A DNA stretch of 64,000 nucleotides from Escherichia phage EP1, in sequence record OR892555.1. One strand, given 5' to 3'. This document shows positions 42,882 through 46,610 of the stretch, piece after piece (position 1 is the first letter of the stretch; each line of letters opens with the position of its first letter). Position numbers and translations under genes: made by a program. The notes under the pieces were generated by a model. That model was not told where the DNA came from. It did no database searches and worked only from the letters and a program-made list of their open reading frames with translations.

Positions 42882-45419
42882 TTACGCCGTTCTAACCCAT
42901 GCCATCAATCTGATAAACAAGTTTACAACACTGAATGCTGAACCAGAACCTGTACCACCAGTGTCACCACTAACTGTGTGGGTGTGAGCACCAATACCAA
43001 CCGTGTGAGCGTGGTTACCAGCAGAAGCAGCAGTACCAGAGATTGTGTGGGTGTGAGCACCACCTGCATCAGTGTAACCTGGCCCTGTACCAAGCTTACC
43101 ACCACCACCACCAGAGTAGTGAGTAGAGTTCTGACCAATCCATGAGATAGCATGTTTGTGACTACCAGCAGATGCAGCAGAACCACTTACAGAGTGGGTA
43201 TGAGCACCAGTCGTGTTAGAGGTCTTAGTACCATAGTCAAAGCTTGACGTTGTAGCTGAGAAGCTGTGAGTATGTGAAGGAAGGTGTCCTACAGCTAATG
43301 TCACAGTATCTGCACCACCAACTGTCTTAACATCTGAACCATTCGCTGCACCGATTCTGACAGTTCTACCGACACCTTCATTTAGATACGTCCAAGTTAA
43401 TCCCGGAAGGGTAGTATTAGGGTTCTGGTTAGTTGCAAACCATGTTACAATACCTACAGGGTAAACTTTCTTAAGGTCTGTAGAGTCTGTAACAGCATTT
43501 GCAATCTTCTGGTCAACTTCAGTTTTAGTATATGCACCAACATCTGATGCTGAAGGTTTTAACAAGCTTGTGTAAATAGACTGGACACTACCAGAAACCA
43601 TGCTAGTTGGTGGTGTTACAGAACCTTCAGGTGTTGTATACATAGATACTGCGGCATTTGAAGTGCATCTCCAACTAAAGCTAATACTGTGTGCATAACC
43701 ACCAGATTTAGCGTAGATATCATAACTATTGCTACCATTCGAAACATAACCAATATCAGTAAACAATGGACTAGTGTCAGTACTATTCCAAAGAACTGCC
43801 GTGATACCAACAGGTGTAGAGTTGTTTCCAGTCCTTAAAATAATACTAGTAGGCGCGGCTTGTGCTGTTGAGCCAGCATTATAACCAGCACCACCTGCAA
43901 ACCTCATTTCTACAGTTGATGTACTCTGTGGCATAACTACGGTTGCCACCTTAACCCATAAACCATTAGTACCTGAGCTATTTGGACTAATAGACCCAAT
44001 CATTTCATATCTTAAGTCTGATAAACTTTTTGTATAATATCTTGAATCAAAGTTTGCAAAGTCTGAAGGTTTCACCTGTCCAGTGATATTCACACTTTTA
44101 TTGGCGACAATCTCATTAGCAAGCTGCAAAGAACTACCAAGTATGTGGTTTTGCAATGACAGAGTTGTTGAACCATCTGAGCCAACACCAATAAACCACC
44201 TGTTAGTAGTACCATCTGAGTCTCTTGAGATGATATAAGAGGCTTTACCTGCACTGCTTGGCATTAATACTAGACCCTGACCATCATTCTTAATGGTCTG
44301 TACACCAGTAAAGGTGTTTGCAGTATTGTTCCTTGCAATTGTAGAAAGTGTTGCAGCAGGAATAAATCTGGCATCAATGTTAGACCAATCTGTAGGCTGA
44401 ACCTGTCCAGTGATTGCAAGACTCTTGTTAACTCTGACCATGTTATCAAGTAATACATAGGTATCATTTGAGATGTTTGTCAATACAACTGAGTTGCTAC
44501 CATCTGCATAGTTACCTACAGCCCACTTCATAGAAGCATCTGTGTTCTGACCTTCAATGTAAAGTGCTTTACCACTTGTCAAGTTCTTCAGAGTTAATCT
44601 TGCACCATCACCAAGTAACGTTGTAGTACCTCTGAGGGTGTTGTTTCCAGTAATCGTGTTAGCTGCTGCCAACTGAACAAATCTTTGGTCTGCTGCATCA
44701 CGAGTATAGAATCTTGCATCAAAGTTTGCGAAGTCTGAAGGAACAACCTGTCCAGTAACTTGAAGACTTTTGTTAATACCTACAGAACCAGTACCAAGAA
44801 CAATATTAGTATTCTGTTTGGTGTTTGCAATAGTAACGTCAGAACCAGAACTCAAGTTACCAATTGTGAACCTTACAGCGTTTGCTGTATCACGACCTTC
44901 ATAATACAATGCAGCCGCAGCAGTGTTCTTCAAAGTCAAACCAGCATTATCTGTCTGGAAAATCTGACTTGCTGTAAAGGTATTTTGAGTTCCCTTGATA
45001 GCAAATCTTGCATCGTTCTCATCATTAGTTCTCATCCCAAGTTCATTGGGAGATGGCTTATTCAGAGTGTGATAAACAGTTGCACTTCTTGAAGCATCTG
45101 CAATAGTCAGTTTAAGACCATTTGCATTAAGCTTGAAAGTTTTTGCAGTGTCACCGAAGACAATTTCGGAGTTACCTGTTGGGTCAAGTAAATCTTTTCC
45201 CCCATAGGTAAGCTTTACAATTCCTAAATTACCTGTCATGGTTCCACCAACTAATTGCAGAAATCTTTCCAGTCTAAATGATGCAAGGAAATCCGCATAA
45301 GTCATTCTACGGTCTTCATCACCTAGCATCTCAGTTCTTTTCTTAACTCTGACATGCAATAGGTCATCAGAACGAATCTCACTAATCGAGTTTAATTCAC
45401 TCAATTTAAATTCTGCCAT
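42882..45419 (-). CDS. long tail fibre protein with His-x-His repeat C-terminal tip
   Basis: 845 aa; C-terminal GAHTHS...HKHA...AHTHTISG...[17 protein letters not shown] repeats. Confidence 0.75.
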   Translation of the reverse strand: [845 protein letters not shown]

Positions 45420-45431
45420 TATACAATCCTC

Positions 45432-45455
45432 TTAAAAGGGGCTAAAAAGCCCCTA
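45432..45455 (-). terminator. terminator-like hairpin (GGGGC-taaaaa-GCCCC) between the two fibre genes
   Basis: 5-bp GC stem with short T-run. Confidence 0.5.
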
Positions 45456-45461
45456 TTATAA

Positions 45462-46610
45462 TTAAGCAGTTCTCTGCCATACATATAGAACAAATGATGG
45501 CTGTTCAATGTTAAATGCCTGACCAGAACCAGTTGAGCCAGTTGTACCAGAGTGAGAGTGTTCACCTGCACCTGTAACAGTTACAGTAGCCGTATGCGAG
45601 TGGCTACCAATTGATACAGAGTGGCTATGAGCACCAATCGCTACAGTATGAGTGTGCGCACCAATCGCTACAGTGTGCGTATGGTTGTTAGCGGTTGTCA
45701 GAGTGGCTCTTGGGTCATAGTCTGCACCAACTACTGAAAGTCCCGGATGACTCCCTGGGTCATAACCACGGTTAATCCACGTTGTCTGAGTGAATCCAGC
45801 AGAACTCGTAGTTTTATTACCATAGTTAAATGATGATGTGGTCTTAGTACCATAATCAAATGTTGTAGTGCTTCTATTCCCATAGTCAAATGAACTGATT
45901 GAAGCAGTTGCACCATGTGAGTGACCACCACCTGTAACGTACACTGAGTGAGTGTGAGCAGGGATGTTATTAGCTGTCAATGCAGCAGTCTGTGAACCAA
46001 ATGTCGAACCTGCTGGTCTAGAAGCACTGTCATAACCTACAAGCGCTCTACCTCTTGAAACCAGTTCCCAAGTACCTCCACAAATCAGGTAAGTAGATGG
46101 GTTAGCAGCATTCATCGACAAGTGGATAGTACCAACTGGATATGAAGCCTGAACAGCTCTGTATAGACTATTAACTGCTCTTGCTGTAGCATACTTATCA
46201 GCATCTTCATTATATGCGTTGGAGGCTAACCAGTTCTGAACATTACCCAAACCAACTTGTGATTTAGTTGTGTTGTGAGGGTTATTCTTATCATTAATGT
46301 GAGCCTGAATAAGTTGATTAACTTCATCAGAAGACATAATCTGTAAGTTCGCTCTTGCTTCAGCTACGTCAACGATATCTGATAAGTTATTTGCAGCGAC
46401 AAGCTGTAAAGCATTTAAGACATTACCTAATTCAACCTGAACTTTTGTGACACCGTGAGGGTTATTCCTCAAGGATGCGTGAGGGTCAAGTAGTTGTTCA
46501 AGTGTACATCTCTTGTCTTCAATACCTTGTTTAAGGTGGAAGATATCACTTAACTCAATTGGTAATGATGCTTGAGGCAAGGCACTAATTTGAATTTCAC
46601 CTACTGCCAT
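45462..46610 (-). CDS. tail fibre protein (paralogous tip with His-x-His and FDYG repeats)
   Basis: 382 aa; [26 protein letters not shown] and [31 protein letters not shown]; C-terminal tail similar to the 845-aa fibre. Confidence 0.7.
   Translation of the reverse strand: [382 protein letters not shown]

Follow-up and report, generated by a model that had tools for sequence, protein, structure and literature searches.

In bacteriophage T4, gp37 forms the distal section of a tail fibre built from four proteins and depends on the chaperones gp38 and gp57A. The prototype structure of its tip (2XGF) was reportedly published by Bartual et al. in 2010. Seven irons are held by His-x-His (HxH) triads in the needle core of gp37, H929 and H931 are essential and do not tolerate alanine, the tip residues 932-959 bind lipopolysaccharide (LPS) and OmpC, and the collar domain D10 consists of residues 811-881 and 1010-1026 (PMC6957217). 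Similar tips were found by cryo-electron microscopy (cryo-EM) on the short and the long fibre (430 and 630 angstroms) of the Felixounavirus Bas63 (Escherichia phage JohannRWettstein), where a collar, a six-stranded needle that bears conserved HxH motifs, and a head were described and the counts of di-His motifs were seven for the short and six for the long fibre (PMC12609058). Two fibres of 391 and 792 amino acids (aa), gp52 and gp53, are also known from the Shigella phage Sf14 (Mooglevirus); a gp10-like C-terminal domain was reported for gp52, and a T4 gp37-like distal tip and T7 gp17-like domains for the long fibre gp53 (PMC11821841). In this study we analyzed the corresponding locus of Escherichia phage EP1 (OR892555.1), positions 42,882-46,610 of a stretch of 64,000 nucleotides (nt) which is called the window here. 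An earlier reading of the sequence alone, the original prediction, had placed two paralogous tail fibre genes in this locus.

Identification of the short and long fibre genes

The window was placed by megablast in the genus Suspvirus (Ounavirinae, Felix O1-like myophages). The closest records were Salmonella phage PC79-13, Escherichia phage mistaenkt and SUSP2, with 92-96% identity over 74-78% of the region. Both predicted open reading frames (ORFs) were confirmed (Table 1), and so were all peptides quoted from them, apart from a small slip: the HxH run of the short fibre begins with NHTHT, not AHTHT. The short fibre matched PHROG 2097 ("tail fiber") over aa 1-381 with an E value of 1e-123. 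It was 84.8% identical to Bas63 gp26 over residues 1-382, and all seven HxH motifs are located at identical residue numbers. The long fibre matched PHROG 4277 over its full length (1157 bits) and was 52% identical to Bas63 gp27 over residues 1-845, with six triads and the same head type. In contrast to Bas63 gp27 (784 aa), it carries a different and longer allele in its middle part (aa ~345-640).

The gene order points in the same direction. Upstream (5') of the short fibre gene lie a Baseplate_J-like gene (489 aa), a gene matching a PHROG "baseplate protein" (285 aa) and a 104-aa ORF. In Bas63 these three correspond to wedge 2, wedge 1 and the platform of the long fibre (PMC12609058). The fibre pair thus follows the wedge genes and a platform-type ORF of ~100 aa, and it is followed on the 3' side by two small ORFs and a thymidylate synthase gene on the opposite strand. 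The same layout was found in PC79-13, mistaenkt, SUSP2, CHB7 and Bas63. From these comparisons and the tip homologies described below we conclude that the region very probably encodes the short and the long baseplate fibre of a Suspvirus, and that both would be homotrimers with receptor-binding tips of the T4 gp37 type. The architecture of such tips is already known, as it was published in 2025 for the 85%-identical orthologue.

Homology of the fibre tips to T4 gp37

Both fibre tips were compared with the crystallized T4 gp37 tip (2XGF) using phmmer, which yielded E values of 1.7e-12 for the short and 1.3e-16 for the long fibre. The alignments span the collar, the SSFDYGTK motif and the HxH motifs on both sides of the head. 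The short fibre contains seven HxH triads, as does T4 gp37, starting at aa 219, 230, 310, 319, 328, 337 and 351, and the long fibre contains six (aa 716, 740, 754, 789, 803 and 812). In both proteins they are split by the distal insert, two before and five after it in the short fibre and three on either side in the long fibre, and in this arrangement they align to 2XGF. The homology to T4 gp37 includes the C-terminal strands; the conserved C-terminal tails of the window fibres correspond to T4 residues 1010-1026, which return to the collar. The heads are different: those of the window are related neither to each other nor to the head of T4 gp37.

The collars of both fibres were homologous to T4 gp10, gp12 and gp37 (D10). 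By phmmer, the collar of the short fibre aligned to T4 gp10 (2FKK, 5HX2) and to its counterpart in T4 gp37 (2XGF), and the FDYG stretch of the short fibre aligned to SSFDYGTK of T4 gp37. In the long fibre, PF21939 was detected at aa 650-759 with an E value of 4.5e-6 and 28.1 bits at a cut-off of 27. The authors of the Sf14 study interpret the gp10-like domain of the short fibre differently; the short-fibre tip of Sf14 was 48% identical to that of the window. The original prediction had also described the C-terminal modules of the two fibres as similar to each other. This was confirmed, since the fibres are homologous in their C-terminal ~230 aa (244 aligned columns, 27% identity, E 1e-10) and the alignment includes the C-terminal tails ...VWQRTA and ...AWVRTA. 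The N-terminal parts showed no sequence similarity, and the paralogy of the fibres is therefore modular.

The tips are compositionally biased, which gives rise to spurious ORFs in other frames, and the HxH and FDYG patterns might for this reason be chance features of a low-complexity sequence rich in Gly, Ser, Thr and His. However, in 20,000 composition-preserving shuffles per protein the observed HxH counts were never reached (means of 1.1 for the short and 0.36 for the long fibre). Moreover, the motifs align residue for residue with the crystallized T4 tip, and their positions are conserved across ~50 tips. A chance origin is consequently so improbable that it can be neglected.

The following picture of the tips would result from the homology. 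Each fibre would be a homotrimer. From the collar, each chain would extend outwards as part of a thin six-stranded beta needle, fold into a small head at the distal end and return to the collar. This doubling back is implied by the co-linear 2XGF alignment and by the cryo-EM structure of the 85%-identical Bas63 orthologue. The HxH triads of the three chains would face the needle core; in T4 six histidines per set hold one iron ion. By homology, the seven triads of the short and the six triads of the long fibre would represent structural metal sites which rivet the needle, and contact to the receptor would be made by the heads (aa 269-309 of the short and aa 757-788 of the long fibre). The original prediction had likened the C-terminal modules to metal-binding fibre tips. 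Both proteins match 2XGF and the Bas63 orthologues have been described likewise (PMC12609058), so that this comparison stood. It had further expected the HxH residues to cluster in a binding site. In T4 the HxH triads hold core iron and the receptor contacts are located in the head (PMC6957217), so the HxH motifs are not the binding site. By the same homology, the histidines of the window fibres would hold structural iron and would not serve as a receptor site.

A direct role of the iron in adsorption would be conceivable, since HxH does bind iron in T4 and a mimicry of siderophores has been proposed for marine phages (PMC11705849). In that case the HxH-bound iron would be the ligand, and the tip would imitate a ferric siderophore and dock to a TonB-dependent receptor ("Ferrojan horse"). 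However, the T4 histidines are directed towards the needle core and have a role in folding, and LPS and OmpC are bound by loops of the head (PMC6957217). Relatives within the Ounavirinae depend on the LPS core and not on protein receptors (Sf14; PMC11821841). In addition, the HxH segments are conserved and the head is the variable part. We consider such a siderophore mimic very improbable, and regard the HxH sets as structural metal sites.

Repeat units of the needle

The short fibre contains two arrays of direct repeats. The triple peptide repeat SSFDYG/TTFDYG/SSFNYG, which the original prediction had pointed out, is present and consists of three 10-aa (30-nt) units. The near-tandem DNA repeat which it had noticed was also found (45606-45677; 2.7 copies, 80% matches, score 88 in Tandem Repeats Finder), with a period of 27 nt (9 aa) instead of ~24 base pairs (bp). 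It encodes four HxH triads 9 aa apart. Both arrays cover the same length of 30 residues.

Published contacts of T4 gp37, G921-F970 and G964-H929 (PMC6957217), give an antiparallel register of i+j ~1892. This register puts F902-Y904 opposite H989-H991 and T892-L894 opposite H998-H1000. According to it, the FDYG units on the outgoing strand would face the nine-spaced HxH units on the returning strand. The units were counted on ~50 tips with 13 distinct architectures from Ounavirinae, Tevenvirinae, lambda-like, P2-like and other phages. In 13/13 architectures n units of the type F/T-D-Y/L-G were accompanied by n+1 nine-spaced HxH triads, with n ranging from 1 to 5. The 1/2 type was observed in all long fibres of the Ounavirinae and in Klebsiella phage RCIP0098, and the 2/3 type in T4 gp37 and 23 short fibres of the Felixounavirus type. 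The 3/4 type comprised the window and seven relatives, gp37 of VR7, JQD51 and phi25-307, one lambda-like Stf and one P2-like fibre. Mordin and Mijalis, whose short fibres are of the Mooglevirus kind, and three IMG/VR loci were 4/5, and PTXU04 was 5/6. Compared with T4 gp37, the window short fibre has three FDYG units and only two outgoing HxH triads.

Hafnia phage Zyzzx (MW749004.1; locus positions 1-934) carries a mirrored arrangement with 1/2 on each strand. On the outgoing strand one FDYG unit faces two nine-spaced HxH triads of the returning strand, and on the returning strand a second unit faces two nine-spaced HxH triads of the outgoing strand, so that n / n+1 is still kept. Lambda Stf, P2-like and T-even gp37 tips share the collar, the TDLG/FDYG and HxH units and the ...IAFNYIVRLA strands; the examples compared were of the 3/4 type.

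Since the n / n+1 counts hold, the short fibre's two tandem repeats most likely represent opposite sides of a single ladder, in which three FDYG decapeptides on the outgoing strand would pair with four HxH nonapeptides on the returning strand. A strict rule, according to which n decapeptides (F/T-D-Y/L-G-x-K-x-T) are matched by n+1 antiparallel HxH nonapeptides, has to our knowledge not been stated previously. We propose it tentatively, as a possibility that may well fail in this strict form. If it is true, the length of the needle would change only via coordinated two-sided events or swaps of whole cassettes, and the repeats would be a length ruler rather than a slippage switch.

The original prediction had favoured such a switch. 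Slippage in the 27-nt (HxH) and 30-nt (FDYG) arrays would often alter the number of repeats and thereby the host range. Adjacent 27-nt units do share a perfect run of 17 nt, gain or loss of a unit stays in frame, and lineages differ in their numbers (2, 3, 4 or 5 FDYG-type units with 3, 4, 5 or 6 HxH). Duplications in the C-terminal part of T4 gp37 are also said to have widened the host range (Tetart et al. 1996), which would speak for slippage. However, the number is fixed within an architecture. All eight window-type tips (8/8; Suspvirus and Bas63-like loci, with Bas63 itself at 85% protein identity) are 3/4, and 23/23 Felixounavirus-type tips are 2/3 with no variation of the unit number. 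The two arrays flank the head on opposite sides and change together as n and n+1, so that a slip in a single array would lead to partner strands of unequal length. Furthermore, the repeat units have already diverged at synonymous sites (80% matches), and the hypervariability is found in the head and not in the arrays. Because the unit number is constant within an architecture and changes only coordinately between architectures, slippage is unsupported, and we regard it as quite unlikely.

Variation of the fibre genes among relatives

The fibre locus is a diversification hotspot among the relatives, as had been predicted. Pairwise identity is 25-46% in the heads versus 82-98% in the flanks. For 30 unique short fibres it was 85-98% at aa 1-200, 26-46% at aa 261-320 and 84% at the C-terminus. 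A comparison of 29 long fibres gave 75-91% for the N-terminus, 3-23% for the central domain (aa 476-600), which is the most variable part of the locus, 82-86% for linker and collar, 25-34% for the head and 85-89% for the C-terminus. At least nine alleles of the long-fibre head occur between near-identical HxH-coding flanks.

Several relatives carry tips that appear to have been exchanged as a whole. CHB7, a Suspvirus, possesses a short-fibre tip of the Felixounavirus type with nine HxH triads and two FDYG units. The long-fibre head of AYO145A (L013, KR014248.1) was 88.5% identical to T4 gp37 at the aa level. Because head and distal needle of L013 and L015 are almost those of T4 gp37, a transfer of the tip cassette between Tevenvirinae and Ounavirinae is shown. 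In the contig L027 the heads of its own two fibres were 91% identical over 200 nt of DNA, and the remaining tips were ~75% identical. This difference suggests a recent exchange or gene conversion between the two paralogues. The tip of the mistaenkt short fibre was 100% identical to that of the window.

The long fibre of mistaenkt (MN850587.1; locus positions 1501-3702) lacks 147 nt between perfect 22-nt direct repeats, CTGCTGCTTCTGCTGGTAACCA. The deletion removes the whole head and two HxH triads and leaves a protein of 733 aa instead of 782 aa. Its end-points are the equivalents of two repeats which bracket the head in the window. There the repeats are 52 nt long (43011-43062 and 43158-43209) and 79% identical; they had not been mentioned before. 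A megablast search with the deletion junction was not diagnostic, since the query aligns ungapped to the downstream repeat copy of undeleted phages. Mistaenkt was isolated on E. coli K-12. If its record is correct, the head of the long fibre is dispensable on this host; otherwise the deletion is an assembly error.

From these observations, specificity would change mainly by homologous exchange of a cassette of head and distal needle. The conserved HxH-coding DNA on either side would provide the cross-over sites, with a deletion between those repeats now and then. In gene 37 of the T-even phages, conserved His-containing motifs are reportedly recombination sites (Tetart et al. 1996/1998). The alignment across relatives which had been proposed as a check did reveal module exchange, but no repeat-number variation within a lineage. 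The changes found were cassette exchanges and one deletion between 22-nt direct repeats, and not slippage of tandem units as originally assumed. An invertible or diversity-generating tip cassette was also looked for and rejected, as long inverted repeats are absent from the genes and their surroundings and the downstream region contains no spare cassette.

For the hypervariable central domain of the long fibre, a role as a second receptor-binding module in lateral position is possible. This domain was no more than 47% identical to any sequence from 50,697 phage records (tblastn), and it was left uncovered by the closest relatives in megablast (78% coverage). It gave no Pfam match and only chance matches in the Protein Data Bank (E ~0.3). 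Members of its family occur in Felixounavirus long fibres, in ST64B Sb24, in SSU5-like fibres and in the mid-regions of T-even gp37. The window long fibre is a new mosaic in that its residues ~345-640 are unlike those of other Suspvirus members, which have a shorter domain at this place annotated as T7 gp17-tip-like. The repeats preceding the central domain belong to the gp37_trimer family PF20744, which was detected above its cut-off. At the DNA level they are spaced by 327 and 345 nt, and they too had been overlooked before. Within them, aa 381-452 matched T7 gp17 (4A0T/4A0U) with an E value of ~4e-5.

Some further peculiarities of the relatives were noticed. In CHB7 (MK562504.1; locus positions 4368-4621) the short-fibre gene contains a perfect tandem duplication of 127 nt with 100% identical copies. 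The resulting frameshift divides the gene into the annotated gp58 and gp59. The duplication is either real or an assembly artefact. The IMG/VR Felixounavirus contigs L020, L025, L026 and L027 carry one and the same head, GGRYGGDSIGGKxRVQVSGT, on both fibres (last 600 nt). In the Felixounavirus long fibres of L013 and L015 (ORF ends at locus positions 8083 and 8074) the C-terminal ~145 aa are close to T4 gp37, GEHSHYIEAWNGTG.... The short fibre of phiSUSP1 has an in-frame deletion of 7 aa (YRAVQAS) at ~aa 150, the start of the collar, as judged against the window and all other Suspvirus short fibres. The mistaenkt record marks a "repeat_region" across the HxH array.

Several points weigh against the assignment of gp37-type receptor-binding tips and the ladder model. 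A single-sequence AlphaFold2 prediction of long-fibre aa 464-845 was unusable, with a mean predicted local distance difference test score of 32.7 and a predicted template modelling score of 0.23. Metal binding of the window tips would be an extrapolation from the T4 structure, and the LPS core as receptor of the window phage is suggested by its relatives only. The proposed pairing of FDYG and HxH strands is derived from co-variation and two T4 contacts in the literature. For the deletion in mistaenkt and the duplication in CHB7, errors of assembly are a possible explanation. Finally, Pfam and PHROG searches found no gp38/Tfa-type chaperone gene after either fibre gene, unlike in T4, lambda and P2-type phages. 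The missing adjacent chaperone was also remarked upon for Sf14 (PMC11821841). T4 gp37 belongs to a multi-protein fibre, whereas each window fibre consists of one protein which is joined directly to the baseplate. A tfa or gp38 gene is adjacent in all T-even, lambda-like and P2-like examples compared, but not in the Ounavirinae. Because of this lack, folding of the fibres may differ from the T4/lambda/P2 type.

Taken as a whole, what the original prediction had observed was confirmed and its reading was supported in part. The support applies to the metal-binding tip and to the hotspot, but not to slippage, to the role of HxH as a binding site or to the control of stoichiometry (see below). Both fibre genes decide to which bacteria the phage attaches, and their domain boundaries matter for the prediction of host range and for the engineering of Felix O1-like phages. 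The parts that can be interchanged are the head together with the distal needle and, in the long fibre, the central domain; collar, proximal needle and C-terminal strands form the scaffold. The repeat counts suggest that any graft must keep the numbers of outgoing and returning repeats matched. The current understanding of these fibres is unchanged; modest leads are provided by the n / n+1 rule and by mistaenkt with its naturally headless long fibre.

The intergenic hairpin

Directly after the stop codon of the short-fibre gene an RNA hairpin is found (Table 1). The stem contains five G-C pairs, and the centroid energy is -12.8 kcal/mol. Compared with shuffled sequences, the folding of the entire 61-nt stretch is just slightly better (z = -1.75). 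Among 34 Ounavirinae loci there were 22 distinct intergenic sequences, and the stem was kept in all of them (22/22). The loops differ between them, and one stem pair shows a compensatory change from A-U to G-C. A selected RNA structure is therefore likely.

The original prediction had interpreted the hairpin as a terminator that could set the stoichiometry of the fibres, i.e. as a partial intrinsic terminator which lowers the expression of the long relative to the short fibre. The GC-rich 7-bp stem directly after the stop codon, the UUUU that follows it and the conservation pattern described above are in agreement with this idea. However, a conserved U-run is lacking. On the coding strand there are only four T before AAGAGG, which fails the T-run rule of the terminator scan, and the scan reported the opposite strand only. 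In 6/22 distinct sequences of relatives the U-run is missing while the stem is kept; in Mooglevirus-like lineages it is replaced by UAGAAAG, UAUAAAG or UCUAUUAAG. A stronger terminator-like site with a 12-bp stem and a longer T-run is present elsewhere in the window (55346-55375). Moreover, six-fold (C6) reconstructions of the Bas63 and Sf14 virions contain both types of fibre (PMC12609058, PMC11821841), so that an unequal dosage of the fibres is not evidently needed. The existence of the hairpin was thus confirmed, while a function in stoichiometry appears unlikely. Most plausibly, the hairpin may act as a weak terminator or as a stabilizer of the 3' end of the upstream message. A promoter between the two fibre genes was rejected as well, since the sole consensus match lies on the wrong strand and occurs at chance frequency.

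Features of the fibre locus and its surroundings

The features of both genes are compiled in Table 1. The two copies of the repeat in the proximal shaft of the short fibre lie at 46233-46286 and 46413-46466. This motif is a widely shared building block of fibres, because many unrelated PHROG tail-fibre families match just there. The window has a GC content of ~40% and is AT-rich.

Table 1. Features of the short and long fibre genes in the window of Escherichia phage EP1.
Feature	Position	Strand	Basis or remark
Short tail fibre gene, 382 aa	45462..46610	-	Orthologue of Bas63 gp26 and Sf14 gp52
NNPHxxTKxQVxLGNVxN, two copies 60 aa apart, proximal shaft	46233..46466	-	DNA repeat; peptide 49-66, 109-126
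Short fibre, collar, Pfam Gp10_C, aa 154-248, reaching into first two HxH	45867..46151	-	PF21939, E 1.9e-18
Short fibre, two outgoing-strand HxH triads, aa 219-232	45915..45956	-	Triad count
Short fibre, three 10-aa FDYG-type units, putative outgoing needle strand	45807..45896	-	Direct repeats, 30-nt spacing
Short fibre, head and distal turn, aa 269-309, hypervariable, presumed receptor contact	45684..45806	-	Identity among relatives; 2XGF alignment
Short fibre, four HxH triads 9 aa apart, putative returning needle strand	45594..45683	-	27-nt tandem repeat; T4 gp37 alignment
Short fibre, last HxH triad (aa 351-353) and C-terminal strands, putative collar return	45465..45563	-	T4 analogy
RNA hairpin, 7-bp stem, right after short-fibre stop	45437..45454	-	Followed by UUUU, then AAGAGG ribosome-binding site of long-fibre gene
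Long tail fibre gene, 845 aa	42882..45419	-	Orthologue of Bas63 gp27 and Sf14 gp53
Long fibre, three ~110-aa gp37_trimer / T7 gp17 pyramid-type repeats, aa 136-470	44010..45014	-	PF20744, E 2.6e-52, 175 bits, 3 stretches
Long fibre, hypervariable central domain, aa ~474-625	43545..44000	-	Comparison of relatives
Long fibre, linker and collar, aa 626-715	43275..43544	-	82-86% conserved among relatives
Long fibre, outgoing needle strand (HTH, one FDYG unit, HTH, HKH), aa 716-756	43152..43274	-	2XGF alignment, triad count
Long fibre, head, aa 757-788	43056..43151	-	25-34% pairwise identity; at least nine alleles among relatives
Long fibre, returning strand (HTH, HAH, HTH; aa 789-814) and C-terminal collar strands	42885..43055	-	85-89% conserved
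Direct repeat pair bracketing long-fibre head, encodes SG(S/T)AASAG(S/N)H, 147 nt apart	43011..43209	-	DNA repeat

The labels of the fibre genes in GenBank are inconsistent. Bas63 gp26, the short fibre, is tagged as "long tail fiber protein", and the short fibre of mistaenkt is tagged as "baseplate wedge subunit and tail pin". Two small ORFs (42234-42802) follow the long fibre gene; they encode 65 and 124 aa and matched only PHROGs of unknown function in Pfam and PHROG searches; in relatives such ORFs are called "holin" without evidence. The 124-aa protein combines a membrane segment at the N-terminus with a coiled-coil-like tail, and its gene closes the fibre operon. Between this ORF and the convergent thymidylate synthase gene lies a strong terminator-like hairpin (42206-42229) with a stem of 8-9 bp and T-runs on either side, which is terminator-like on both strands.

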